A DNA stretch of 61,431 nt, counting the filler. It is 5 parts of 5 records of this genome, joined end to end, with 100 filler letters (N's around TTAATTAATTAA, not from the genome) between each part and the next. Parts side by side here need not be neighbours in the genome. Positions count along the whole stretch, not along the records: positions 5,546 to 19,845 come from SRR20825010_1372; 4 more parts are not named here. One strand, given 5' to 3'. A program made the translations under genes and the position numbers. Of this stretch, positions 1,223 through 33,871 are shown one piece after another (position 1 is the stretch's first letter; each line of letters starts with the position of its first letter). The notes beneath the pieces are model-generated. The model ran no database searches, was not told the DNA's origin, and saw only the letters and a list, made by a program, of their open reading frames with translations.

Positions 1223-4200
1223 CTATTCCATGCCTTCCAGCGCTTCCTGCAGCAGGAGATAAACTTTCCCAACATCCGCCGTAATGAAAGCGTCTGACAG
1301 CAACTCGGAATGATCAACGGTGCCGGCTTCCGTCATGATTTCACGGAACTCCGATACATACTGATCTGCAAACCGCCGAAAATCACCATTGTCGCGATAG
1401 CGCGCACGGATTTTATCGGCATCACGAGACTTCAGAATTTTCCGAGTAAAGATGCCCTTTTCACCCTTCCGATAGCGCCGCCATAACTCTTCAGACAGGC
1501 TGCTATCCATGATCCGGTTCAAATCGATAGTCAGGGAGTTCAGGTTTTCCATGATAAACGCCGTGGATTTCATGAACTGCTCATTCCGGATCTTATTTTT
1601 CTTTTCCGCCAGACGGTCGGCTTCCTTCTTTGCCCGGGCTGCGGCGGTGGTCAGGCTCGTCGTCTGCTGTTCAATTTTCTGACCGGACAGTAATGCATCT
1701 TCCGCCGCCTTTTCCGCCGCCGTCTTGAAGGCCGCGCTTTCTTCCCTCAAGATTGCGGTGGAATGATTAAGGGTGCTTTCCACCAGCTTCACCGATTGAG
1801 CAAGCTTTTGATGCTGATTTTCAAACTGCTCCCCCAGTGCCCGCGCACTTTCGTTGGCTTTACTGGTGAAGCGAATGAGATCTTCCGCCTGGCCATGGAA
1901 CAACTCGGAAGCGCCGGAACCGGCTTCCTTCACCTGCAAACCAGCCTCCGATATTTTTGCAGTTACCCGGTCAAGGTCATCATGAATATGACGGCGCGTG
2001 TCGTCAATTTCCATCTTGTGTTTTGCTAATGCCTGATCGGCATATTGAATGCCCTTGATCATCAACTCGCTTGCTTTCGCAAGCTCAACCGAGCGGCGAT
2101 GGAATCTCTCGCTTGCTTCCGACGCCTGATCCACCGATTGATCAAGCATGTAGGAACGTTCAGACAGGGTTTTCTCGACCGTCTCCACCTGTTCCGTCAA
2201 CTGACGAGCAATATCGGCAAGAGCCAACGTTTCCTGTTGGAGAATTTCCTCCATAGCTTCGGCATGATCTTTCGCGCGAACAGAGATATCCGCGAGTTCC
2301 TCCATATGGACCTTTGCAGATCCGCTCGCCTCGTTGATATTCGCAAGGGAGGATCGTGTTACTTCAGCAAGCCGGCTCCCCTGGCTCTCGGCCTTGCCGG
2401 CAGCCATGTTCAACTGTTCGATATGATCGGACGCCTGATCCCCCATCGCCCGCAATTCAGCCGAAGCACGCTCCGCCGTTTTGGCAAGTTCGGCAGTTTG
2501 CGAATGCGCCGCCTCGCCAGATTGACGCGCCTGCAAGGTTGCCCGTTCCGCGGTGGCCATAAAGTCTTGATGATACCGTATGGTTTCTTCGATTGCGGCG
2601 GCGAGTTTTCCTTTTGAATGATCGGCGGACGCTCCCAACTCTTTTTGCTGCTTGCTCAAAGCCTCGCTCGCCGATGCAAGGGTGCGGGAGGCTTTGTCGG
2701 CACTCACTTCAATTTCAGAGCCTTCCCGGCGTAATTCCTCTCCGGCCTCGCGCATCTTTCCTGTGACCGCATCGGATGTCAGTTTCAAGTCTTCCGCCTG
2801 GCGTTGCAGGCTGGTACCCACTTCCGTAATGCGGCTGTTTGTGTCCGTGCTGGCTTCAGCCAGCAGCATGACGTCTTTCTCGAGCCGCTCGCCAATCTTT
2901 CGCGACATTTCCAGAATCTGTTGAGAGGCTGATTCAAACACTGCAATTTGATTGCGGAGCTGCTCCTGAATGAGCGTCGTTCGCGCACCGGTGGTCTCGG
3001 AGGCTTCATTCAGGCTCGCCGCATGGCTTGCAAGCTTCTCCCCGAGCTGATCCGCATTCCGCAAGGATTTCTCACCCGCTGCGTCCAGAAGCTGTTGCCC
3101 CTGACGGAGGCTTTGATCGATCGCTTCAAGGCTTTGCCCCGTCGACCTCAGAATATCATCAAGTGCCGCCGACTCGTCCTTCAGCTTCATACTGCTCAGC
3201 AGCATTCTCTCAGTCATCTCGCTGGTTTTGACGGTAAGGTCTTGCGTATTCTCGCGCAGCAGGTCAGCGGATTCCTTGGCGCCGGTCTCTGCCTCCTTCG
3301 CCGCCTGCAACAAACCGCCTTCCCGGCTCTCCAACTGATCAAGCGCCTTATCTACTTCAGCAACGCTGTTCGCAAGGGTATTTCGAAGAGCATTGAGGCG
3401 CGTAACGCCTTCATCGCTCGCAATGCTCAAATCCGTCGTGCTTTGCAACAGGATATCGGCAGTTTTGGAAAGCTCGGTCGAGGAGTTGCGGGAAATCTCC
3501 GCGATTTCCTGGCCGCGTTCGCCCAGATGCGCTGTGCCGTCGTCCAGTTTTTGACGCAGTTGGCTTACAGCGTCTTCCATACTCCTGATTTGGTCGCCAA
3601 GGGCATCCTTGGCTTCCGCCGTCTTATCAAGAGTCTGCGATGCCGTTGCAAATATCTTCTCACTCGTATCGCCGAGGATTTTCGTAATGTCCTGCGATTT
3701 TTCGTCAGCGGTGCGAATGGCGATCTCAAGCGCCGATATCTGCGCAGCTAGTGCGCTTTGAACGGACTTGCTGCGTTCTTCGGTTTCACTCGCGGCATTC
3801 TGCAGACCGTCCGTCTGTAGTGATATGGCGTCATTTAGCCGGTTGCCCTGTTCGTTAATTTTATCGATCAGCGCATTAATCTGCTGTGCCCGGCTTTCGA
3901 GTTCATCCTTTATCCGGTCAGAGGTTTTAAGTAACCCGGCCGTTGCGGAATTGGCAGCAATCCCCTGCTTTTCCAAGTCACCAGAGGCACCTTCAATTCG
4001 AAGTGCCGCTTTTTCCGTTCCGTCCTGAACGGCTTTTGACTGTCGTTCGAGGGTTGCGGTTAGGCGCGCGACACGAATTTCCGCCTCGTTGCTTGGATAA
4101 CCAAGATTAGCCATCAACTGATCAAGCGCGTTGCCCTTCAGGCGAGCTTCCAGCCCTCGGTAAAAATAGCCGAGCAGCAGCCACAGAAAAGCAAGAGGGG

Positions 4201-4456
4201 CAAAAGCACCAAGAAACAGAATTCCCAGATCAAAAGGAACTATCTGAAGAATATCGGGCCAGCCGATTCTTGTATAGACATAGGACCCAACGGCAACAAG
4301 CCAGCCTAACGTTACCAGAACCCCGATACCAAACAACCAGGCAGCCCCGGATAAACCCTTATTTTCAGGCGCTTTTTGCGGCACAGCATTTGCTTTCGCG
4401 GCGGGCACGGACTCGCCGCTGCGAATTTGAACTTTCTGATGTTTTTGCAACATCAC
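1223..4456 (-). CDS. Large membrane-anchored coiled-coil polar protein, TipN / GPR(RgsE)-like
   Basis: Two N-terminal TM helices, about 850 aa of helical coiled-coil, C-terminal LWRRYRKGEKGIFTR..FRRFADQYVSEF..DVGKVYLLL block recalled from GPR/TipN-type proteins. Confidence 0.7.
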   Translation of the reverse strand: MMLQKHQKVQIRSGESVPAAKANAVPQKAPENKGLSGAAWLFGIGVLVTLGWLVAVGSYVYTRIGWPDILQIVPFDLGILFLGAFAPLAFLWLLLGYFYRGLEARLKGNALDQLMANLGYPSNEAEIRVARLTATLERQSKAVQDGTEKAALRIEGASGDLEKQGIAANSATAGLLKTSDRIKDELESRAQQINALIDKINEQGNRLNDAISLQTDGLQNAASETEERSKSVQSALAAQISALEIAIRTADEKSQDITKILGDTSEKIFATASQTLDKTAEAKDALGDQIRSMEDAVSQLRQKLDDGTAHLGERGQEIAEISRNSSTELSKTADILLQSTTDLSIASDEGVTRLNALRNTLANSVAEVDKALDQLESREGGLLQAAKEAETGAKESADLLRENTQDLTVKTSEMTERMLLSSMKLKDESAALDDILRSTGQSLEAIDQSLRQGQQLLDAAGEKSLRNADQLGEKLASHAASLNEASETTGARTTLIQEQLRNQIAVFESASQQILEMSRKIGERLEKDVMLLAEASTDTNSRITEVGTSLQRQAEDLKLTSDAVTGKMREAGEELRREGSEIEVSADKASRTLASASEALSKQQKELGASADHSKGKLAAAIEETIRYHQDFMATAERATLQARQSGEAAHSQTAELAKTAERASAELRAMGDQASDHIEQLNMAAGKAESQGSRLAEVTRSSLANINEASGSAKVHMEELADISVRAKDHAEAMEEILQQETLALADIARQLTEQVETVEKTLSERSYMLDQSVDQASEASERFHRRSVELAKASELMIKGIQYADQALAKHKMEIDDTRRHIHDDLDRVTAKISEAGLQVKEAGSGASELFHGQAEDLIRFTSKANESARALGEQFENQHQKLAQSVKLVESTLNHSTAILREESAAFKTAAEKAAEDALLSGQKIEQQTTSLTTAAARAKKEADRLAEKKNKIRNEQFMKSTAFIMENLNSLTIDLNRIMDSSLSEELWRRYRKGEKGIFTRKILKSRDADKIRARYRDNGDFRRFADQYVSEFREIMTEAGTVDHSELLSDAFITADVGKVYLLLQEALEGME

Positions 4457-5725: not shown

Positions 5726-5795
5726 TGGCCCCGTTGCTAGAGTGCCGTCGTTGTTATCAGACATACCCCGAGAACAAAAACGACGGAGGTTTATC

Positions 5796-8543
5796 ATGGC
5801 TATGTCCCCCTGGGTTACCTGGCCAGCCCTGACCAAGTTTGGTTCACTTGGTGTCATGGGCGCCCTGCTGGTTCTTGCCGGCCAACGGGAAGATCTGCTC
5901 GAAAACAATATGTTCGACATGGAAAACTGGGGTGAAAAAAACGCCAGTATCGTCTGCGATGAGCGCAGCCACGTGGCCCGTACCGAAGACGGCACCTGTA
6001 ATATCCTGGACAATCCGGCGGAAGGCTCTGCCAATGTGAACTTTGGCCGCAACGTGGACCCCGCCTCGTCCTTTGCGGAATCGGAAAGCGGCAACCTGCT
6101 GACGCCGAACCCGCGGGAAGTCAGTAACCTGATCATGTCCCGGGGCGGCGATTTCAAACCCGCCACCACCCTGAACTTCATTGCCACGTCCTGGATCCAG
6201 TTCATGGTTCACGACTGGTTCGATCATGGCCCGCGTACCGATGCCAACCCGATCGAATTCCCGTTGCCGGCGGGCGATGTGCTGGGGTCCGGCACCATGT
6301 CCGTACAGCGTACCCGCCCGGACCCGAGTGTCACTGGCGATGAATCCCTGGTGACCTACGAAAACATCAACACCCACTGGTGGGATGGGTCGCAGCTGTA
6401 CGGCAGCGACAAGGAAACCAACGACGAAGTCCGTTCCTTTGTGGACGGTAAGCTGAAAGTCGACAGTAATGGCCGCTTGCCCACAGACTTCCTCAGTGGC
6501 AAACCCGTTACCGGTTTCAATGAAAACTGGTGGGTGGGCCTGAGCATGCTGCACCACCTGTTCACCCAGGAGCACAACGCCATTGCGGACATGCTCAAGG
6601 CGAACAACCCAGGTGCTACGGATCAGTGGATCTACGATCACGCCCGGCTGATCAATGCTGCCTTGATGGCCAAAATCCACACTGTGGAATGGACTCCGGC
6701 GATTCTTGCCAACCCGGTGCTCGAGCGCGCCATGTACGCCAACTGGTGGGGCCTTGGCGGTGATCGTGACAAGCGCGACAAATTCCAGGATGACCTGGAC
6801 GAGCTGAACAACAACCTGGGTGAACTGGGCGGCATCTTCAACCTGCTCGGTATCGATAACGATCTGGGGCAGGGCGATACCAGCTCCATCGAACACGCCC
6901 TGGCTGGCTTGGTGGGTTCGCGCACCCCGAACAACTACGGCGTGCCTTACACGCTCACCGAAGAGTTTGTCTCCGTGTATCGCATGCACCCGCTGCTGCG
7001 TGATGAGATCAAGGTCTATGACATCGGCTCCAACGTGGTGGACGAAGAAATTCTGCTGCAGGATACCCGTAACGGTGATGCGGAAGATCTGCTGACCGAC
7101 GTGGGCCAGGATCGCCTGTGGTACTCCTTCGGTATTACCCACCCGGGCGCGCTGACACTGAACAACTACCCGGACTTCTTGCGCAACCTGTCCATGCCGC
7201 TGATTGGCGACATTGATATGGCGGCCATCGACGTACTGCGCGACCGCGAACGCGGTGTGCCCCGTTATAACGAGTTCCGTCGTCAGATCGGCCTCAAACC
7301 GCTTACCAGCTTCGAGCAGTTATCCAGTGATCCGCAGCTGGTGGCAGACCTTAAAGCGCTATACAACAACGATATCGAAATGATCGATACGCTGGTGGGC
7401 CAGCTGGCAGAAGAGACTCGCCCGGAAGGCTTCGGCTTTGGGGAAACGTCTTTCCAGATTTTCATCCTCAATGCGTCACGTCGCCTGATGACCGACCGTT
7501 TCTTTACCACCGATTACACCGACGAGGTCTACACCGCTGAAGGGATCGACTGGGTAGAAGAGAACACCATGGTCGACATTATTCGCCGCCACTACCCGAA
7601 CCTGGCCAGCAGTCTGGTAGGCATGGATAACGCTTTCAAACCCTGGGGCCTGAAAATTCCCGAGGACTATCAGTCCTGGTCTGCCCAGGCGAAACAGGAC
7701 CACCTGTGGGTCAACGGCGCCCTGCGTACCAGCTACGAAGACGGTGAAGTACCGGCCATCGAACCCATCGATATTGGTGGCCTGATCAACTCCGTGCTGT
7801 GGAAGAAAGTGCAGGATGTCACCGACGTGAGCCCGCCGGGATACAGCAAGCCGATTCACCCTCGCGGTGCGCTGGCCAAGGTGCAGTTCGTGCCGACGGC
7901 AGGCCATGGCTACACCGGCCTGTTCCAGGGGGCAGATCACGGCCTGCTGCGGCTATCTGTGACTGGCGATCCGTCGGACCGTGGCTTTGCACCGGGGCTG
8001 GCGCTGAAATTGATGGTGGACGGCAAGCGTTCCGAGAACGTGTCTGCGCTCTATACCCTTAGCGGGCAGGGCGATAACCACAATATCTTTGCCAATGAAC
8101 TGTCCAACTACGTACAGCCTGAAGTGAACGAAACTCTTGGCACAACGACGCTGTTCTCGCTGGTGTCCAGAAAGCCGACGCTGGTCGTCATGAGTGACAT
8201 GGCCAAGGTGAACCAGGATGGTTCCCCGGTGAGCAATGCCAACACCCCATCACAGGTTTATTTCGTGCCCAACGGTGATCTGAAGAATTCCATCAGCACC
8301 GCGCCCCACGACTTCCGTGACGACCTGACCGCCCTGAATCCCGGGACCAAGGTGTATGACGTTTACGCGACCTCCAAGTCCATCAAAACGTCCATCTGGC
8401 CCTGGGTGACCGCACGCTACGCCCGCGAGCGCCGCAACAGCGCTACCAAAGTCGGCGAGCTGGTCATGGCATCCCCGTTCACCCTGTCCCAGTTCGGTGA
8501 CACCGGCATCTTCTTCAAGCACCAACGGTACGAAGATCGCTAA
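5796..8543 (+). CDS. Fatty-acid alpha-dioxygenase-type heme peroxidase fused to a C-terminal catalase-like domain
   Basis: GGAGG RBS at 5785; SWIQFMVHDWFDH, WWDGSQLYGS, AKIHTVEWT, SVYRMH, RDRERGVPRYNEFRR, SRRLMTDRFFT; then KPIHPRG..GLF..LRLS..GLALK..SEN. Confidence 0.85.
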   Translation: MAMSPWVTWPALTKFGSLGVMGALLVLAGQREDLLENNMFDMENWGEKNASIVCDERSHVARTEDGTCNILDNPAEGSANVNFGRNVDPASSFAESESGNLLTPNPREVSNLIMSRGGDFKPATTLNFIATSWIQFMVHDWFDHGPRTDANPIEFPLPAGDVLGSGTMSVQRTRPDPSVTGDESLVTYENINTHWWDGSQLYGSDKETNDEVRSFVDGKLKVDSNGRLPTDFLSGKPVTGFNENWWVGLSMLHHLFTQEHNAIADMLKANNPGATDQWIYDHARLINAALMAKIHTVEWTPAILANPVLERAMYANWWGLGGDRDKRDKFQDDLDELNNNLGELGGIFNLLGIDNDLGQGDTSSIEHALAGLVGSRTPNNYGVPYTLTEEFVSVYRMHPLLRDEIKVYDIGSNVVDEEILLQDTRNGDAEDLLTDVGQDRLWYSFGITHPGALTLNNYPDFLRNLSMPLIGDIDMAAIDVLRDRERGVPRYNEFRRQIGLKPLTSFEQLSSDPQLVADLKALYNNDIEMIDTLVGQLAEETRPEGFGFGETSFQIFILNASRRLMTDRFFTTDYTDEVYTAEGIDWVEENTMVDIIRRHYPNLASSLVGMDNAFKPWGLKIPEDYQSWSAQAKQDHLWVNGALRTSYEDGEVPAIEPIDIGGLINSVLWKKVQDVTDVSPPGYSKPIHPRGALAKVQFVPTAGHGYTGLFQGADHGLLRLSVTGDPSDRGFAPGLALKLMVDGKRSENVSALYTLSGQGDNHNIFANELSNYVQPEVNETLGTTTLFSLVSRKPTLVVMSDMAKVNQDGSPVSNANTPSQVYFVPNGDLKNSISTAPHDFRDDLTALNPGTKVYDVYATSKSIKTSIWPWVTARYARERRNSATKVGELVMASPFTLSQFGDTGIFFKHQRYEDR

Positions 8544-10132: not shown

Positions 10133-10651
10133 TCAGAACCGGCCGTTCAGGCCCAGCCCCAGGTTGGTCACTTCGTCACCGCTGCGATCCACCAGCCGCA
10201 TGTATTCCAGGTTGATGAACAGGGTTTTGGTGATGGTGAAATCTACACCCAGGCCCAAAGACAGGTCTTTGTAGTTTTCCCCGTCGGAGCCGCCGAACGC
10301 ATTTTTCTCGGTGGTTTCCATGTAGGTGGCACCGATCAGGCCGTAGGGGCGTACGGGCATGGTGTTGGGGAACTGGCCGCGAAAGTAGGCGCCGTAGTAA
10401 CGGTCGATTTCCACGTCCACGTTGTTGCTCAGCTCATCTTCACCGACGCCAAGACCCAGGCGTACTTCGCCACCGAGGGTTTCGTCGCGGTTGATCCAGC
10501 TGCCGAACTTGAATTGCAGGGCTTCGGGTTTGGCACTGGCGGTGGTGTTATCCGGCTCGATGTCGCTGCTGATGAAATCGATACCGGCAAAACCGCCGGC
10601 GTTGGCGAAAAGGGGCATTGCCAAAGCAGCGGCAAACAATACTTTTTTCAT
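10133..10651 (-). CDS. Small outer-membrane beta-barrel protein (OmpA-like/porin family)
   Basis: Signal peptide MKKVLFAAALAMPLFANA, alternating beta strands, C-terminal Phe; GGAG RBS. Confidence 0.85.
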   Translation of the reverse strand: MKKVLFAAALAMPLFANAGGFAGIDFISSDIEPDNTTASAKPEALQFKFGSWINRDETLGGEVRLGLGVGEDELSNNVDVEIDRYYGAYFRGQFPNTMPVRPYGLIGATYMETTEKNAFGGSDGENYKDLSLGLGVDFTITKTLFINLEYMRLVDRSGDEVTNLGLGLNGRF

Positions 10652-10760
10652 GGGTTCTCCCACTGGATGTGAAGTCTCGACGCAGTAATAGAGTGATTGT
10701 AGTGAAAAGTGGGGGCGACGGCGACCGGGGCGTTTGAGGGGATTTTAGGGAAGGGCGGGG

Positions 10761-10816: not shown

Positions 10817-12157
10817 TTAGTGGTCGTGATCATGGTCATCGTCGTCATGATCGTGCTCGTCTTCGTCGCTATGTTCTTCTTCATGGTCGCTATCAAGACC
10901 GGCCCAGGCCAATGCTGCGGGCGGGAAGGTCAGGCTGAGTGGGGATTCCAGGCTGCCTTCTTCAAGATGCACGACAACGATGGCGTTGTTATCGGTATCC
11001 GAAAGAAAGACATGCGCAGGCTCGCCGGCCACGGCCATCTGGGTATTGCCCGGGGCGATGGCATCTTCCACGTGGGCGTGCTCACTCCAGTCAGCGGTGT
11101 CGAAAATACGCAGGTCGCCGGCATCATCCAGCAACACAAGGTGTTCCCCGTGGGGATCCAGGCGGTGGCTTTCCAGTGTTACGGCGGCGCCTTCTGTCCA
11201 GTCCAGTTCCTCGGCGTCACCGTCTTCCGGGTGGATAACCAGGATACGGTCACCGGCATAACCCACAAAGTGGCTCAGTTCGTGATGACTGTCGAAACTG
11301 CCGATACGCTCGCCGGCCCCCAGGCCAAGAGTGGCGTTGGTGACTTTCTCGGCGGTGAAATCCTCTCCGTCCTGATGGACGATCAGGATGCCGTCGCTAC
11401 AGCCGAACACCGAGTAGTCTTCGTTGGAGCCGGCGCCATGAAGGTCCGGGCAAGTCGGCGCGATGGTGTCTTCCTTGTGATAGTGATCGCCATGCTGATG
11501 GTAGACATCAACGGTTTCCGGGAGGCCGGAAGCGGCAGTGCGGAAGGTGGCCAGCAGTACATCGCCGCGGGGCTCGGCCACACCATGGTGGGCACTGGCG
11601 AGGGTCTGGCTGGCTACGGTGGAAGCCGTTTCCAGCGATTCATCAGTGAGCAGTTCCACCTTGGCCATGACGGCGCTGGCGGCATCGCCGTCATAGAACA
11701 GGGCGGCCTGTTCTCCGTGGACCCGGAAGTGGGTGGGCGCCGGGCCGGTGAGGGTGCCCGCAAAGGTGGGGATCACTTCGTCCACATGGTCGTCATGCAG
11801 GTAGAGCCCGCCATCGACGATCTGTACCTGGTTGTCGTCTCGTTGCATGGCCAGGACAAAGCGCTTGCCCGGGCTGGTGTAAAGCGCGCTGGCGTCGTGG
11901 TCCAGGGAGAGGGTGCCGGGTAGCAGGGCGCCGGCCTCCAGGTCATACACATACAGCTGGGTGCCGTCGTCATCGGCGGCAATCACCAGTCGGCCGGGAT
12001 GATCACTCTCGGCATGGTCGTGTTCATCTTCACTGCTGCCCAGCGAGCTGGTGCCGGTTTCGTTACAGCCGGCCATGGCGAGGGCGGCAAGCAGGGACAG
12101 GGGCAGGGCTGCGTTTTGTTTCAGGTTTTTCATCATGCGTTGCATGGTGTTCTCCAT
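10817..12157 (-). CDS. AztD-like zinc-binding beta-propeller lipoprotein with His/Asp-rich tail
   Basis: Lipobox AMAGC; PTHF, AHHGVA, CPDLHG, FGCSDG motifs; C-terminus HEEEHSDEDEHDHDDDDHDHDH. Confidence 0.75.
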   Translation of the reverse strand: MENTMQRMMKNLKQNAALPLSLLAALAMAGCNETGTSSLGSSEDEHDHAESDHPGRLVIAADDDGTQLYVYDLEAGALLPGTLSLDHDASALYTSPGKRFVLAMQRDDNQVQIVDGGLYLHDDHVDEVIPTFAGTLTGPAPTHFRVHGEQAALFYDGDAASAVMAKVELLTDESLETASTVASQTLASAHHGVAEPRGDVLLATFRTAASGLPETVDVYHQHGDHYHKEDTIAPTCPDLHGAGSNEDYSVFGCSDGILIVHQDGEDFTAEKVTNATLGLGAGERIGSFDSHHELSHFVGYAGDRILVIHPEDGDAEELDWTEGAAVTLESHRLDPHGEHLVLLDDAGDLRIFDTADWSEHAHVEDAIAPGNTQMAVAGEPAHVFLSDTDNNAIVVVHLEEGSLESPLSLTFPPAALAWAGLDSDHEEEHSDEDEHDHDDDDHDHDH

Positions 12158-12218: not shown

Positions 12219-14285
12219 TTAAAATTCAATGCGGGTACCCACGGTGACGTTGCGACCTGGCTCCGGCACGGTGCTGGCAAGGAAGGAAGAGTGGTTGAAT
12301 ACTTCTTCTCCTAACAGGTTGTTGCCGCGCACATAGAAGGTGTAGCGCTGGTCGCCACGGAGCCGGTAGCTAAGGGTCGCGTTGACCATGTCGTAGGACG
12401 GGGTGGTGTCCTCAAAGCCAGCGATCTGGTCCTGTGCAAAGCTGCGGTAGAACTCCAGTTCTCCGTCGAAGTTGCCCAAGTAGCTATTGAGACGCGTGCC
12501 TAGCCGTTTGGCGGGGATGCGGGGCAGGTAGCCGCCATCATCGAAGGTCGCGCGCACCGTATCACCAAAGACCGTAATCCCTACCGGGTCGATGCCGTAG
12601 TAGCTTAGCGAGGCTTCGGCACCGGTGAAGGTGGCGTCACGCTGGCTGTACTTGATCAGACGAAAGTCTTCGATCTGGTCGAGGGTACGGGCATAGATGT
12701 AGTTGTTGATGCGGTTTTCGAAGATGCCCAGATCAAACAGCCAGTCGCCCTGGGTCTTGCGCAGGTTCAGGTTGGCGTTGAGGCTGACTTCGTCATCCAG
12801 ATCGCTCTGCCCGCCACCGCAGTCGCTGAGCAGGCCGCACTCGTAAGTGTTGGTCGCCAGATGAACGCCTTCTGCATAGAGCTCCTGGGCGCTGGGTGCG
12901 CGGCCAGAATGACCCACAGACAACACCAACTCATAACCTGGCACAAAGGCCCAGTTGGCCGCGCCGGAGAAAGAGGCATTGTCCGCGGTGACTTTGGCAA
13001 GAGCCTGGCCATTGCGGTCGTCCGGTGTTTGCGTCAGGTGCTCCTGGCGCGCCCCAAGCTCAAAGGACCATTGCTCATTGAGGATGTATTCCTCTACCGC
13101 AAAGACGGCAATGGATTCGGTCTCGGTCTTCGGCACGAAGGCTTCGCCACCCAGTGAGCTGAAGTCGAATTGGGTGTACTGCAGGCCCACAACGCCGCGC
13201 CAGTTACCCAGCGGTTTGTGTTCCACTTCCAGTCGCGCATCGCCGCCCCTGTTGGTGAAGGTGCTGCCGATGGCGCCTTCCTCAATTTCGTGGTGGCGAT
13301 AATCGGTGTGATTGCCACGGAAGCGAATGGCGGTCACCCCGGCGAAGGGCTCGCGGTATTCACCACGGGCATCCACCCGGCGGCTGGCCAGGTCCACATA
13401 GGGGACAACATCGCCATGGTCATGGGTATGTGAAGAGGTGGGGCAGCTCAGGCTGGTGCCGCTGGCCTCGCACTCCTCGAATTCGTGGCTGTGGCCGGGC
13501 AGGCCGTAGTTGTCGCGGCGATAGCTGTAGGCCATGCCGAAGTAGCCCTGATCCCCGATCCAGGAGGCGCCAATGCTGCCATTGTCGCTTTCCGCATAGG
13601 TGCCGGGCACGGTGAGTTCTTCGAAGCCATTCACTTCGTAGTCGTCTGCGTCGCGGCGACTGCCTTCCACCCGAAACACCAGGTTGTCGGTGGCAGAGAC
13701 GGTGAGGCCGGCGGCAGTGGCGTTCTCATCGGCCACGGTATTGGCCCGGGCTGCCACGAAACCCTCCACGTCTTCGCGAGGGCGCTGGGTGGGGATGCGG
13801 CTGTCCAGCACATTCACAACACCACCGCTGGCACCGCTGCCATAGAGCAGGGTGGACGGGCCGCGCAGCACTTCTATCTGGCGCGCCAGCAGGGGGTCCA
13901 CCGTGACCGCGTGATCAGGGGAGATACTGGAGGCATCCAGTACCTGGGAGCCATCATTGAGCACCCCCACTCGTGGGCCGCCCTGACCGCGAATGACGGG
14001 CCGGCTGGCGCCGCCGCCAAAGGTGTCACTGTGGACACCGGGCTGGTCTTTCAGGGTTTCCCCGAGGGTGTTCTGGCCTTTCTGGGTGAGGGTTTGCTGG
14101 TCCATCACCGAATAGGGTGTGCTGGGGCTGTCACTGCCCAGCGGCAGGGCGGACACGTCCACTTGCTTCAGCTCGTGGGCCTGGTCGGCGGCTGCGCTGT
14201 TGTTTTCAGCATCGGCCAATACTGCCGTGGGCACCAGCAGGGCCACGGCGACGCACCCGGTCAGGGTCTGGCGTCGAAATATCAT
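12219..14285 (-). CDS. TonB-dependent receptor, ZnuD-like
   Basis: Plug motifs FGGGASRPVIRG, SPDHAV, IEVLRGPSTLLYG; His/Cys loop GHSHEFEEC..C..HTHDH; DYRHHEIEE; C-terminal PGRN..IEF. Confidence 0.88.
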   Translation of the reverse strand: MIFRRQTLTGCVAVALLVPTAVLADAENNSAAADQAHELKQVDVSALPLGSDSPSTPYSVMDQQTLTQKGQNTLGETLKDQPGVHSDTFGGGASRPVIRGQGGPRVGVLNDGSQVLDASSISPDHAVTVDPLLARQIEVLRGPSTLLYGSGASGGVVNVLDSRIPTQRPREDVEGFVAARANTVADENATAAGLTVSATDNLVFRVEGSRRDADDYEVNGFEELTVPGTYAESDNGSIGASWIGDQGYFGMAYSYRRDNYGLPGHSHEFEECEASGTSLSCPTSSHTHDHGDVVPYVDLASRRVDARGEYREPFAGVTAIRFRGNHTDYRHHEIEEGAIGSTFTNRGGDARLEVEHKPLGNWRGVVGLQYTQFDFSSLGGEAFVPKTETESIAVFAVEEYILNEQWSFELGARQEHLTQTPDDRNGQALAKVTADNASFSGAANWAFVPGYELVLSVGHSGRAPSAQELYAEGVHLATNTYECGLLSDCGGGQSDLDDEVSLNANLNLRKTQGDWLFDLGIFENRINNYIYARTLDQIEDFRLIKYSQRDATFTGAEASLSYYGIDPVGITVFGDTVRATFDDGGYLPRIPAKRLGTRLNSYLGNFDGELEFYRSFAQDQIAGFEDTTPSYDMVNATLSYRLRGDQRYTFYVRGNNLLGEEVFNHSSFLASTVPEPGRNVTVGTRIEF

Positions 14286-14290
14286 AACTA

Positions 14291-14501
14291 CCTCTGTCTC
14301 TAGCGTTCATGCAGGGCATGAATGAGGGCGCGAGTAAAAGGGCGCAGCCGAAAAGAAAGCAGCTGGCCGGACTCGTGCCGGAAACACGTTTGTTGCTGAT
14401 CGCAGGCAGGCGCAGCAGGCCCGGCTCTCATTGAGAGGGGCAAAAGGCGATGCGCCAGTATGATCAGGGATCAGTAACGGGAATCAGGCAGAGACAGGAG
14501 G
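14291..14501 (-). promoter_or_regulatory. Long-range anti-SD/SD pairing between the uORF 3' end and the receptor RBS
   Basis: mRNA CCUCCUGUCUCU (14501-14490, codons P-P-V-S) complements AGAGACAGAGG (14301-14291, the receptor SD region): 11 bp with one bulge. Confidence 0.7.
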
Positions 14502-14804
14502 GCCGCGGGGTGGATAGGGGTTGCGTTCGCTGCGGTGAACCACGGTGGTGGTGAGAGGCAGCGGGGTGGGTTCCACCCGTTGAGTAACGGGGGTGTTGTA
14601 AACGCTGGGCAAGGCCAGCAGGCCGTGCCCATGGGTACATACCTGGCAATCAGCGGAAGCCAGCAGCTCCTTGGTGGGGCTGTGTTGGCCGGCGTCGATG
14701 TGGGCTGGGGCGTGCCATGCCAGCAGCAGCTGGGCACAGAACAGCCCGAGCACCAGAGACAGGGAAAGGCCGCGACGGTATTGGCTCAGCATGGCGGGGA
14801 TCAT
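14484..14804 (-). CDS. DUF2946-like (CruR/CutF-type) upstream regulatory ORF
   Basis: N-terminal hydrophobic segment, His-rich linker, CQVCTHGH, Pro-rich C-terminus YPPRGPPVSA; directly upstream of a TonB receptor. Confidence 0.8.
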   Translation of the reverse strand: MIPAMLSQYRRGLSLSLVLGLFCAQLLLAWHAPAHIDAGQHSPTKELLASADCQVCTHGHGLLALPSVYNTPVTQRVEPTPLPLTTTVVHRSERNPYPPRGPPVSA

Positions 14805-15082
14805 TGTGACGTACCCCCGTTATTGTCACCGCATGGCGATGTGCATTGGTGCGCTTCCGGGTCAGGCTCGGTGCCGGGCACGTAGTCAAAACCACCCGGG
14901 TGCCAGGGATGGCACTTGCACAGTCGCTTCGCTGCCAGTGCGCTGCCGCGCAGGCTGCCATGGGCCACTACCGCCTGCCGGGCATATTCCGAGCAGGTGG
15001 GGTAGAAGCGGCATTGATTGCCTATCCAGGGGCTTAGCGCCTTCTGGTATAGCCAGATGGCGCCAAGCAGAAGCGATTTCAC
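14801..15082 (-). CDS. yidD: YidD-family protein (orphan copy) with a Cys-containing tail
   Basis: GTG start; YQKALSP..CRFYPTCSEY..G.L..KRLCKCHPWHPGGFDYVP; stop overlaps the uORF start (ATGA). Confidence 0.88.
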   Translation of the reverse strand: MKSLLLGAIWLYQKALSPWIGNQCRFYPTCSEYARQAVVAHGSLRGSALAAKRLCKCHPWHPGGFDYVPGTEPDPEAHQCTSPCGDNNGGTSQ

Positions 15083-15202
15083 GAGCGAATTTCTGCCTGT
15101 CGTTAAATGTTGTGAGTTGTAAAAAATCCATGATATAGCCATCGCGTGGGGAGATACCAGCGCTGTTCCATGGTCGTAATACGCACAGTGATAAAAAAAC
15201 GT

Positions 15203-15217
15203 TGTGATTTCATGACA
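15203..15217. promoter_or_regulatory. Possible Zur-type operator
   Basis: TGTGAT-TTC-ATGACA fits TGTnAT-N3-ATnACA; lies in the divergent yidD/START intergenic region. Confidence 0.35.
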
Positions 15218-15258
15218 CTGCAACGGCAATGGAAGCAGCAAGGTAGCAAGGAGAGACC

Positions 15259-15963
15259 ATGAAAAAAGCCACAGGATGGACCCGCCCGGTACGGGTATCA
15301 GCACTGGCCGTTACCCTGATGTTGTCTGCCGGTTCCATGGCAGCAGATTGGGAAACCGTGAACGAAGGCAGCGCCCGCACGGATATCAGCACCTATGAAA
15401 AAGCCATGGAGGACAGCCCGGTAAAAGCTTTTCGGGGTGTCACCGAAGTGCAGGCGCCGGTATTGAGCGTGTTGGCGGTAATGGCCGATGCCAGTGCGTG
15501 CTCCGAATGGTTGTATCAGTGCCAGTCGCTGGAGCTGCGTGATAACGATCAGGCCTACATTCGTTTCAAAGGCATCTGGCCGGCCAAGGACCGCGATGCC
15601 CTGATCAAGACCCGGACCACCCAGAATGAGGAAACCGGTGCCATTACCCTGGCCTCCCACGCGGTGGACGGTGAGCCGGAGCAGGAGGGTTATGTGCGCG
15701 TTGCCGCGCTGGAAGACCAGTTCATCCTGACGCCGCTGGACAATGGCTGGACCCGCATCGAGTTTGAAACTTTTATCGACCCGGGCGGCAATGTGTCATC
15801 GGTGGCGAACGTGATTTCCCACAAGGCGCCCCAGGAAACCCTGCAGGGATTGCGTGAGATGGCCAGCAGTGAAACCTATCAGAATGCCAAGCTGGATAGC
15901 GCCCTGAAACGCTACCCGGAATTGAAAGGCATGGACTTGCCGCAGAGCCATACACCGGAATGA
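15259..15963 (+). CDS. Exported START-domain (lipid-binding) protein
   Basis: Signal peptide; SPVKAFRG, WPAKDRD, DPGG motifs; GGAG RBS. Confidence 0.85.
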   Translation: MKKATGWTRPVRVSALAVTLMLSAGSMAADWETVNEGSARTDISTYEKAMEDSPVKAFRGVTEVQAPVLSVLAVMADASACSEWLYQCQSLELRDNDQAYIRFKGIWPAKDRDALIKTRTTQNEETGAITLASHAVDGEPEQEGYVRVAALEDQFILTPLDNGWTRIEFETFIDPGGNVSSVANVISHKAPQETLQGLREMASSETYQNAKLDSALKRYPELKGMDLPQSHTPE

Positions 15964-16120
15964 ACAAGGCTGTTGGCTCTAATAGGGTTACCAGGGTTAA
16001 TAAAGAGGAGCGCCGGTAATTGGGGCCAATCCCCCGGCCGGCGCTTGTTTCCCCGCCTCCTGGCCGCATACTGCGGCCAGCATGCTGTTTAGCGTATTTT
16101 GACAAGTGAGGAGAAAACTT

Positions 16121-16801
16121 TTGCGAGCACTGTTTGTGGCACTGTTGCTGGCCCCCCTTATGCTGGCGAACCCGGTCTGGGCGGCGAATTGGAAAACCAA
16201 TCATGAAGGCAAGGACAAGGGGGATATCACCACCTATGTGCGCGATGTCTCCAATAGCCCGGTCAAAGCCTTCAAGGGCATTGTCGAGGTGAAGGCGTCA
16301 GCCACCTCGGTACTGGCGGTGATCACCGCCGTGGACACCTTCCCCGAATGGATTTTCCAGAGTCAGGGCGCCAAGCGGTTATCCGTGGAAGACCGTGAAG
16401 AAATTCACATGCGCTTTAATGGTATCTGGCCGGTGTCTGACCGGGACGTGGTGCTGGCCAATACCCTGAGCCAGAACGAAGACACCGGTTCCATTACATT
16501 ACACAGCGTGAACGCCGATGGCGTGTTGGAAAAGCAGGATGGTTTCGTGCGCATCCCCGCGCTGGATAACCAGTTTGTTATTACACCCATGGAAGATGGC
16601 TGGGTGCGGGTGCAGTTTGAAACCTTCGTGGACCCGGGCGGCAGCGTGCCGGTGTGGCTGGCCAATCTGGTGGCGACCAAGGCACCGCTGGAAACCTTGC
16701 AGGGGTTGAAAGTTCAGCTGGAAAAGCCGCGTTTCGCCAATGCTACACGGAAAGATTTGCCGCCACTGCCGGGGATGGACACACTGTCTCTTGAGGACTG
16801 A
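16121..16801 (+). CDS. Exported START-domain protein, tandem paralog
   Basis: GAGGAG then in-frame TTG at 16121; SPVKAFKG, WPVSDRD, DPGGSVPVWLAN. Confidence 0.85.
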   Translation: MRALFVALLLAPLMLANPVWAANWKTNHEGKDKGDITTYVRDVSNSPVKAFKGIVEVKASATSVLAVITAVDTFPEWIFQSQGAKRLSVEDREEIHMRFNGIWPVSDRDVVLANTLSQNEDTGSITLHSVNADGVLEKQDGFVRIPALDNQFVITPMEDGWVRVQFETFVDPGGSVPVWLANLVATKAPLETLQGLKVQLEKPRFANATRKDLPPLPGMDTLSLED

Positions 16802-33795: not shown

Positions 33796-33871
33796 CGGTT
33801 GCATTCCCCGTTATAAGATATCGCCGAAAGAACTAAGTGCGGCGAGTTTAAGAGCCTGAGAGGGAGTTGCA

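Follow-up and report, generated by a model that had tools for sequence, protein, structure and literature searches.

What does a small open reading frame (ORF) ending in Arg-Gly-Pro-Pro do when it stands in front of the gene for a zinc-type outer-membrane receptor? The question is raised by a stretch of DNA of 61,431 nucleotides (the window; coordinates given without a locus handle are positions along it), in which a leader ORF of 106 residues and the gene of a TonB-dependent receptor follow each other on the minus strand, separated by a spacer of 198 nt. The receptor protein is 100% identical to that of an Alcanivorax metagenome-assembled genome (MAG), L011, and 82-97% identical to those of other Alcanivorax genomes, and by this measure the source of the window is an Alcanivorax species; a near-identical genome, G001, served for genome-wide family searches. 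The answer that we favour, with a probability of roughly 55%, is that the ORF would encode a leader peptide of the CruR/CutF (DUF2946) class that arrests its ribosome and acts in cis, controlling an Alcanivorax zinc-uptake operon by masking of the receptor's Shine-Dalgarno (SD) sequence. A first-pass annotation of this DNA, made from the sequence alone, had proposed a switch of this kind, and in outline its interpretation is partly supported.

Predicted pairing of the leader end with the receptor SD

The elements on which the argument turns are the following.

14484..14804, minus strand: leader ORF, 106 aa, DUF2946 / CruR-CutF type (translation, Pfam, alignment)
14496..14507, minus strand: RGPP arrest motif, residues 100-103, three residues (VSA) before the stop (alignment)
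14487..14501, minus strand: anti-SD arm in two overlapping registers, CCUCCUGUCUCU (14501-14490) and UCUCUGCC (14494-14487) (sequence, fold, alignment)
14286..14483, minus strand: 198-nt spacer, predicted to form a multibranch domain closed by the anti-SD/SD helix (fold)
14306..14322, minus strand: hairpin UUCAUGC-CCU-GCAUGAA, just 5' of the SD arm (sequence, fold)
14291..14301, minus strand: SD arm AGAGACAGAGG, with the SD GAGG at 14294-14291 (sequence, fold)

The last codons of the leader read CGC GGC CCT CCT GTC TCT GCC TGA, and the GAGG stands 5 nt 5' of the receptor ATG (14285). The stretch CCTCCTGTCTCT is found at 14501-14490; set against the SD arm it gives eight contiguous base pairs, one bulged C and then three further pairs. 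Besides the hairpin next to the SD arm, a second one, CTCTCA-A-TGAGAG, lies at 14437-14425. The first-pass annotation had named the codons, both arms, the position of the GAGG and the two hairpins, and all of these are read in the sequence where it had placed them. It had further held that the SD is sequestered by the 3' end of the ORF, and this is what folding of 14520-14270 predicts: the long-range helix closes both the minimum free energy and the centroid structure (-82.3 kcal/mol, z = -3.5), while 0 of 200 shuffled controls fold as well as the native sequence. The duplex energy is -19.2 kcal/mol, and the probabilities (P) that the SD nucleotides are paired with the ORF end are 1.0, 0.88, 1.0 and 0.99.

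Could complementarity of this length be due to chance, with no regulatory element behind it? An 8-mer by itself is common, 17 inverted pairs of at least 8 nt being present within 1 kb. The position of the pairing, the choice of codons and the recurrence in relatives are nevertheless more than chance. Pairing at the equivalent offset exceeded P of 0.9 in 1 of 150 random 237-nt stretches of the window (the native stretch reaches 0.97), and the codons that make up the arm are uncommon, CCT accounting for 11% of Pro codons, TCT for 8% of Ser codons and GTC for 21% of Val codons in ten long ORFs of the window.

A different complement, a perfect one of 10 nt between the SD region of the leader itself (14822-14813) and its codons 71-74 (14585-14594), was set aside; it is not conserved in 11 relatives.

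Conservation within Alcanivorax

The comparison took in 19 related loci of the receptor; one more, L020, matches partially, at 29%. In 17 of the 19 the leader ORF, or what remains of it, precedes the receptor, namely in the 14 that were analysed and in L010, L016 and L017. The spacer of L010 is masked with N, and contig ends truncate L009 and L015. Throughout the 14 distinct Alcanivorax sequences the peptide ends in P-R-G-P-P plus three residues, except that the tail of L005 is frameshifted. In this MAG (L005:4792-5012) a 1-nt difference after the Pro-Pro codons lengthens the tail to PPCLYLISAIAP, which may be a sequencing error or a natural frameshift variant; its SD is still predicted to be paired.

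Among the Alcanivorax relatives the spacer varies from 102 to 199 nt in length and has a mean column identity of 54%, yet all 14 aligned sequences share an unchanged GACAGAGGT at the SD. At least three of the four SD nucleotides are predicted to pair with the leader end at P of 0.9 or more in 12 of the 14 distinct sequences; the predicted pairing is weaker in L006 and fails in L014 (about 0.2). The hairpin at 14306-14322 shows covariation, with three pairs changed on both sides in the alignment (for example CCUGC-UCU-GCAGG in L012).

Which nucleotides of the leader end carry the pairing is another matter. Over the alignment, 72.7% of the cells are paired in the register of the first-pass annotation and 84.8% in a second register, where the last nucleotide of the second Pro codon and the three next codons face GACAGAGG; slid controls give 30-49%. 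The annotation had equated the Pro-Pro codons with the anti-SD. This stands for the window strain and L011, in which alone Pro-Pro is written CCT CCT; the other relatives have CCC, CCA or CCG, and the anti-SD is therefore mainly the three codons after Pro-Pro, the second register being carried in most relatives mainly by these three codons and the stop codon. When the last eight codons were recoded synonymously, the native duplex was stronger than 65-99.5% of the variants in all 13 sequences used (L005, with its frameshifted tail, was omitted), an effect that is consistent but modest.

Leaders beyond the genus

Outside the main group stand L016 and L017 (Alloalcanivorax and a divergent Alcanivorax MAG), whose receptors are 59-61% identical and whose leaders end in R-A-P-P-V-F-S. 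Their SD is CAGGAGA, and the leader codons UUC UCC UGA supply the matching UCUCCUG. A search with a profile of the leaders in 400 other sampled genomes of the class gave six further matches, five of them RAPP/RGPP-ended ORFs (L025-L029). Each of the five has a complement, at its end or stop codon, to the initiation region of the gene that follows, and no two use the same sequence: UUCUCCUAA/UUAGGAGAA, GUCCUGA/UCAGGAC, CUCUCCCC/GGGGAGAG, UGAGAUCG/CGAUCUCA and GCUCCA/UGGAGC. The closing helix is predicted at P near 1 in all seven of these more distant loci (L016, L017 and L025-L029), and spacers range from 70 to 199 nt when they are taken together with the Alcanivorax ones. As a sliding control, the terminal 24 nt of the leader were ranked among all 89-144 windows of each locus as partner of the initiation region; they came tenth or better in 14 of 16 loci and first in six. 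With such recurrence in independent lineages, chance complementarity is already disfavoured, and we consider it extremely improbable as an account of the locus.

The leaders of L027 and L029 precede ZnuD-like receptors, and those of L025, L026 and L028 precede porin-like outer-membrane proteins (OMPs). The latter (L025:1868-3232; L026:71-1432, minus strand; L028:1-1485, minus strand) are about 450 aa long, begin with a coiled coil and share the C-terminal sequence ...LQYIMSLGAHGAH(K/T)Y; they match Porin_O_P or BBP2 weakly and no NCBIfam family. They may be porins under metal control.

The leader peptide

The peptide reads MIPAMLSQYRRGLSLSLVLGLFCAQLLLAWHAPAHIDAGQHSPTKELLASADCQVCTHGHG...YPPRGPPVSA and contains, apart from its arrest motif, three conserved segments.

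14715..14768, minus strand: hydrophobic segment, candidate export signal or transmembrane (TM) segment, about residues 13-30, after R10 and R11 (read from the translation; conserved in the alignment)
14697..14717, minus strand: W-H-x-P-x-H-I motif, residues 30-36 (invariant in 13 of 13 aligned homologues)
14622..14651, minus strand: D-C-Q-V-C-T-H-G-H-G, a CxxC with His, residues 52-61 (alignment)

The first-pass annotation had likened the ORF to the DUF2946 leaders CruR and CutF, and Pfam and the alignment agree: it is of DUF2946/CruR type, with a CxxC, a conserved spacing and a C-terminal RGPP plus three residues. DUF2946 (PF11162) matches over profile positions 18-117 of 117, with 24.8 bits against a gathering cut-off of 23.7, and in G001 the leader is the single DUF2946 gene. 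H31, H35, D52, C53, G59 and G61 are invariant in the leader alignment, H31 and H35 of the WHxPxHI motif being candidate metal ligands. The CxxC is C53-Q-V-C56. In L016 and L017, 2 of the 13 homologues in the alignment, a Leu takes the place of the second Cys while the His residues are kept, and these two depart from the rule of Roy et al. (PMC9426467), who call the CxxC invariant in the DUF2946/CruR family. The R and both P of the arrest motif are invariant in 13 of 13 homologues, the second residue being G or A.

For a wider comparison we took the best 30 DUF2946 loci from 401 sampled genomes of the phylum and kept the 22 with an R-x-P-P end as a canonical set; the other eight were dropped because, by the ORF picker, no R[AGS]PP lay 10 residues or fewer from the end. 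Start codons of these canonical loci were predicted by a heuristic. The distance from CxxC to RGPP is 43 residues in the leader and 43-47 in 21 of the 22 canonical loci, and in CruR it is 45 and tolerates a change of +/-2 but not of +5 (PMC9426467). From HGHG to the motif there are 37-38 residues in all relatives, in a linker of about 40 residues whose length is conserved and whose sequence is poorly so. Given this constancy (43; 43-47; 45), the metal motif would therefore lie just outside the exit tunnel at arrest.

One may also consider that the leader accumulates as a stable protein of 106 aa, acting in trans in the membrane or periplasm as a partner of the receptor in metal handling (a chaperone or accessory factor), with RGPP end and pairing as incidental features. 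Conservation of the TM segment and of the WHxPxHI and DC motifs would suit such a protein, co-fitness data had led to an early proposal of a role for DUF2946 in copper homeostasis (bioRxiv 10.1101/072470), and CutF was initially taken for a chaperone. A linker that keeps its length and not its sequence, however, suits a ruler more than a fold, and invariance of R, P and P three residues from the end speaks against an incidental motif, as does the strong avoidance of RAPP/RGPP in proteomes except for arrest (PMC12992588). CruR and CutF themselves are undetectable in vivo and act in cis (PMC9426467, PMC9973294). A trans-acting partner thus seems to us very unlikely.

Zinc context of the downstream genes

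Two genes downstream of the leader bear on the metal.

12219..14285, minus strand: ZnuD-like TonB-dependent receptor, 688 aa (NCBIfam, PDB match)
10817..12157, minus strand: AztD-like periplasmic zinc chaperone, 446 aa, with an acidic/His-rich C-terminal tail (NCBIfam, PDB match)

Against NCBIfam ZnuD (NF038289) the receptor scores 647 bits over its full length, below the cut-off of 950, and its sole PDB match at 1e-10 is ZnuD 4rdr (1.7e-114); by these comparisons it is a full-length ZnuD relative and not an equivalog. Nor is it of CrtA or OprC type, the TonB-copper model giving 42 bits and CrtA forming a cluster of its own. The high-affinity (buried) zinc site of ZnuD consists of Asp99, His100, Glu340 and His499 (PMC4557270), with which D124, H125, E333 and H475 of the receptor align (4 of 4) when the HMMER alignment to 4rdr is read with a chain index equal to the numbering of that paper +14, as judged from cluster 1, '241-HSHEYDDCHAD'. 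The receptor also keeps a His/Asp/Glu cluster, HSHEFEECEA.

The AztD-like protein scores 78 bits against NCBIfam AztD (NF038015), below the cut-off of 400, and matches PDB 6cmk at 1.8e-11, aligning with AztD over 384 residues. AztD has a site 1 of three His and a site 2 of the form H-x-x-H-x-D (PMC6689063). As the alignment reads, all three site-1 His are kept (...PTHF, the HHG of ...SAHHGVAEP, and CPDLHG), and HDDHVD fits site 2 with a 2-residue alignment gap; the C-terminus is a His/Asp/Glu-rich tail. In Alcanivorax nanhaiticus (L012:2766-4489) ABC-transporter genes of AztC-like (71 bits) and AztB-like (45 bits) type are inserted directly upstream of the leader, separating it from yidD; they are preceded by a 433-aa ORF that matches no family.

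Putative repressor sites point the same way. The pattern GTTAT-N3-ATAAC, the core of the Caulobacter Zur boxes (PMC4176598), occurs in exact form as TACGTTATAACATAACTAT at L018:4920-4932, just 5' of the Salinisphaera orthologue of the receptor gene, which has neither yidD nor leader in front of it, and L006 and L014 carry TGTTATAACCTAACA, a Zur-box-like site with one mismatch, 18 nt before yidD (0.14 expected per locus). Because L018 has a Zur-box-like palindrome and no leader, the comparison suggests that leader and repressor site alternate before orthologous receptors. The single one-mismatch match of the pattern in the window, at 33810, lies between unrelated genes and is at chance level. 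Finally, canonical leaders stand before a ZnuD-type receptor in 0 of 22 loci and before a TonB-copper receptor in 7 of 22.

The zinc-type identity of the downstream genes, which the first-pass annotation had asserted, is well supported, with the ZnuD and AztD ligands kept. For zinc as the ligand sensed by the nascent leader, sequence arguments leave us at about even chances; zinc has the higher odds as the metal transported. It may be, then, that the leader mechanism is as we suppose and the signal is another, the CxxC/His segment sensing copper, or Co, Ni, Cd or Mn. Both characterised family members are copper-responsive, CxxC is a recognised Cu(I) motif, Ni/Co was proposed for His-only clusters in the CutF paper (PMC9973294), and AztC-like proteins also score with Mn-binding protein models; the ZnuD and AztD scores under curated cut-offs could be read in the same sense. 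Set against this are the retained ZnuD (4 of 4) and AztD ligands, the Zur-box-like sites in three related loci, the loss of the second Cys in L016 and L017, the fact that none of the 22 canonical, copper-context leaders precedes a ZnuD-type receptor, and the lack of a Met-rich tract of the CGYC-type copper-leader kind in the leaders (by eye, not counted). We therefore hold a signal other than zinc to be unlikely, although it is the most serious of the alternatives.

A model for the switch

If the above is correct, the device could work as follows. Once the ribosome has left after translating the leader, the last codons (14501-14487) would pair with the SD region (14301-14291), closing the 198-nt spacer into one structured domain and blocking initiation at the receptor. 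When instead the ribosome arrests at RGPP, with Pro102 in the P site and Pro103 in the A site, it would sit on the anti-SD arm, the SD would be free and the receptor would be made. In toeprint geometry an arrested ribosome protects about 15 nt 3' of the first P-site base; a ribosome on codons 14501-14496 would therefore cover both anti-SD registers (14501-14487). That a ribosome stalled at RGPP would cover the anti-SD had been put forward in the first-pass annotation, and for CruR arrest at the corresponding position has been toeprinted (PMC12992588). At arrest the WHxPxH and DCxxC-HGHG motifs, 41-43 residues 5', would sit just outside the exit tunnel, and metal loading of the Cys, His and Asp residues is proposed to set the duration of the arrest. 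CruR polarity seems the likelier one for an uptake system: metal, most likely zinc, would relieve the arrest and turn the receptor off. We base this polarity on CruR and on the logic of an uptake system. What computation shows is the ORF with its motifs, the pairing together with its recurrence, and the zinc type of the cargo genes; the arrest, its metal dependence, the polarity, the share of Rho and the ligand are inferred.

Rho may have a part in this, on account of one further feature.

14441..14622, minus strand: C-rich, G-poor tract (C 41-54%, G 17-19%, in 78-nt windows) (composition)

The tract takes in the leader's 3' half as well as 40 nt at the start of the spacer. By analogy with the cruR Rho utilisation (rut) site it is a candidate for such a site, and receptor mRNA left untranslated, together with this tract, would also invite Rho-dependent termination. 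Since the tract resembles the cruR rut region, Rho-dependent polarity is likely to act as well as SD masking; the two are not exclusive.

Points that weigh against the model

A number of observations weigh against SD masking by a zinc leader. The leader's match to DUF2946 in Pfam is marginal, and the leaders of L012, L016 and L017 have no match at E<=0.01. In the downstream genes, both ZnuD and AztD scores fall under the NCBIfam cut-offs, and no Zur-like box (at most one mismatch) lies near the operon in the window. Both characterised relatives of the leader sense copper, and the only leader of a TonB receptor that has been characterised, CruR, works via Rho as described in PMC9426467. Arrest, metal response and cis action are all argued from relatives, and contigs from RNA libraries, being piecemeal, give no proof of a transcript through the spacer. 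As to the pairing, L012 and L029 fail the terminal-window test (L029 ranks 115th of 118), perfect runs are only 4 nt in L012, L006, L008 and L019, and the C/U-rich codons after Pro-Pro together with purine-rich SDs favour complementarity by composition. Covariation of the arms, to which the first-pass annotation had looked, is absent within Alcanivorax: no two-sided pair changes are found in the SD helix of the alignment because the SD arm, the 3' one, never varies. The arms do differ between genera, where they are aligned by position and not by per-base homology.

Two further results of this kind are also those to be expected if the leader were a pure CruR-type attenuator, in which RGPP arrest would only shield the rut site from Rho and the complementarity of ORF end and SD would be a functionless by-product. 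Recoded leader ends still pair, at -9 to -13 kcal/mol on average, and 16-35% of them beat the native sequence in L001, L002, L006 and L008; and among the canonical DUF2946 loci a complement of at least 7 nt is found in 5 of 22, with 7 of 22 ranking in the top 5%. The latter count leaves pairing between ORF end and SD unsupported as a general DUF2946 trait, and as such it was rejected. The CruR model itself rests on bicyclomycin and in-vitro termination, and its spacer is long too (162 nt between cruR and bfrG; PMC9426467); the C-rich, G-poor tract at 14622-14441 would be accounted for as well. On the other side, pure Rho attenuation does not predict that a closing helix recurs in 12 of 14 and 7 of 7 loci with differing sequences and spacer lengths, that in 14 of 16 loci the initiation region has its best or near-best partner in the terminal window, or that rare codons are found at the arm. 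The GACA 5' of the GAGG is invariant, a constraint that an SD alone does not need. Rho and masking are, moreover, compatible, since a receptor mRNA whose SD is masked goes untranslated and is thereby exposed to Rho. Attenuation by Rho alone is in our judgement improbable, more so than a different metal signal and less so than a trans-acting protein.

Relation to known leader peptides

CruR (Bp2923) of Bordetella pertussis leads the cruR-crtA(bfrG)-bp2921 operon and is a copper-responsive upstream ORF acting through arrest relief and Rho (Roy et al. 2022, PMC9426467). Like the leader described here, it is a DUF2946 protein with a CxxC about 45 residues before R-x-P-P plus three residues and a C-rich tract in its 3' half, followed by a long structured spacer and a TonB metal receptor; its N-terminal export signal has a candidate counterpart in the hydrophobic segment here, and the logic expected is the same, arrest meaning receptor on. 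It differs in that its receptor is of CrtA type, the next gene encodes PepSY_TM, the motif is RAPP, the metal is copper and the published mechanism is Rho-dependent termination; here the receptor is of ZnuD type, the next protein AztD-like and the motif RGPP. Masking of the SD by the 3' end of cruR is not described in the consulted sections of PMC9426467, whose authors point out that riboswitches for copper or zinc are not known.

In CutF, the copper-sensing exported leader of the cutFOG operon of Rhodobacter capsulatus, it is the stall that melts an SD-masking stem-loop (PMC9973294; bioRxiv 10.1101/2025.02.05.636593). CutF resembles our leader, itself putatively exported, in being an exported peptide of DUF2946 type, and it acts only in cis, but it has a CxxxC and an EF-P-sensitive PPP repeat, and copper induces its stall, switching on a detoxifying oxidase, a polarity opposite to that expected here. 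Its stem-loop lies between cutF and cutO, whereas here the last codons of the leader form one arm of a helix that encloses a spacer of 100-200 nt. The mechanism is not a new one in kind, the SD-masking stem-loop being published for CutF and the stall-controlled TonB receptor for CruR. It is rather, by analogy, a variant of published mechanisms, the SD-masking principle of CutF set in a CruR-like uptake operon.

The arrest motif has been characterised elsewhere. RGPP and RAPP arrest ribosomes (PMC12992588, PMC10951233), RGPP being the most robust of the motifs tested and the arrest resisting EF-P, and the toeprint of CruR puts both of its Pro codons in the decoding sites, P and A (PMC12992588). 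ApdA, ApdP and the RAPP/RGPP proteins of the survey in PMC12992588 resemble the leader in small size and in the C-terminal motif, here RGPP, and they carry an export signal, for which the leader has a candidate segment (PMC10951233, PMC12992588); ApdA and ApdP monitor protein export, not metal. Small secreted proteins with a C-terminal RAPP/RGPP are enriched upstream of 'TonB-related' genes in that survey. The terms zinc, Shine-Dalgarno and secondary structure occur zero times each in the main texts of PMC10951233 and PMC12992588, as does zinc in the main text of PMC9973294.

Arrested leader ribosomes that open a helix masking the SD of the next gene are familiar from SecM-secA, MifM-yidC2 and ErmCL-ermC. 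These belong to unrelated families, and their signal is export force or an antibiotic; they are named in PMC9973294. As for other metals, some CutF-like proteins were proposed to sense Ni/Co (PMC9973294), and DUF2946 genes of the CzcI type and Caulobacter CC2720 head Zn/Cd/Co efflux operons (PMC4176598, PMC9973294). Zinc TonB receptors such as Neisseria znuD (PMC4557270) and Caulobacter znuK/L/M (PMC4176598) are Zur-repressed, a transcriptional control by a DNA-binding repressor, in contrast to the leader peptide that precedes the same kind of cargo here. In the literature consulted we found no zinc-responsive leader of the CruR/CutF type and none before a ZnuD-type receptor, although supplementary tables may list such neighbours.

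Gene order and surroundings of the locus

Three other features belong to the putative operon, whose order on the minus strand is yidD, leader ORF, 198-nt spacer, TonB receptor, AztD-like protein and small OMP.

15130..15159, minus strand: candidate operon promoter, TGGTAT (15159-15154), 18 nt, TATCAT (15135-15130) (read from the alignment)
14801..15082, minus strand: yidD, membrane protein insertion efficiency factor, GTG start (Pfam YidD 2e-28)
10133..10663, minus strand: small outer-membrane beta-barrel protein, 176 aa, probably encoded by the last gene of the operon (Pfam OMP_b-brl 4.5e-15)

The candidate promoter is based on TGG and TATcATG, which are invariant across 14 aligned upstream regions; it is absent from the output of a sigma-70 consensus scan of 14100-15700. 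The same scan finds no promoter in the spacer, where one serving the receptor would by the first-pass annotation have refuted its proposal; this is weak evidence. The single match of the scan, at 14829-14800 inside yidD, is about what chance would give. No Rfam family is found in 14100-15400 at E<=1. In RNA-library contigs (four runs, three studies) the yidD-leader and spacer-receptor junctions are covered piecemeal, none of the contigs spanning the whole spacer; such contigs cannot reveal ends, strand or level, and no conclusion on transcription or termination was drawn from them.

The leader is not the first ORF of the operon; the stop of yidD overlaps its ATG (ATGA). DUF2946/CruR-type leaders head their operons, whereas this one is second, after yidD; its 198-nt spacer does fit the type. 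The gene yidD lies immediately 5' of the leader in 16 of 17 loci with sequence at that place, and it is the sole PF01809 match per genome in the four Alcanivoracaceae genomes searched (L031-L034). Because it is the only match in each of them, it seems that a housekeeping insertion-efficiency factor shares a transcript, and through the ATGA overlap its translation, with an arrest peptide destined for export. Arrest peptides often regulate components of the Sec/YidC machinery; at yidD and the leader the order is reversed.

Elsewhere in the window, a 933-aa ORF (5742-8543, plus strand) matches the animal haem peroxidase family at 8e-104, which is unusual for a marine gammaproteobacterium. Tandem START-domain ORFs (15259-15963 and 16106-16801, plus strand) are divergent from the yidD operon, and a 1077-aa ORF (1223-4456, minus strand) has no Pfam match at 1e-4.

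Implications

What is new, compared with the systems above, is the zinc-type cargo with its supporting Zur and Azt context, the design in which an ORF end pairs with the next start, recurrent across genera in this branch, and the natural loss of the second cysteine that is the hallmark of the family. Copper (CruR, CutF) is so far the only metal for which post-transcriptional sensing through a nascent peptide has been demonstrated, and zinc would be a new signal. The fullest version of our reading would make the leader the first zinc-responsive ribosome-arrest peptide, its nascent Cys/His/Asp segment setting the dwell time at RGPP and thereby directly unmasking the receptor SD, since the anti-SD consists of the last codons of the leader itself; the leader would have replaced or overlaid Zur control, and the design would be shared by a wider, unnamed RAPP/RGPP branch before ZnuD-like receptors and porin-like OMPs. 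Taken as a whole this version is tentative, and we lean somewhat against it.

If true, the switch would be a compact one that can be seen in the sequence, with sensor, arrest motif and anti-SD all within 55 codons. The comparison between genera links the logic of CruR, a leader of a TonB receptor, with that of CutF, an SD-masking helix, and with an adjacent rut-like tract. The loss of the second Cys in Alloalcanivorax offers natural variants for probing metal specificity, and the linkage to the only yidD of the genome raises the question whether membrane insertion of the nascent sensor belongs to the device.

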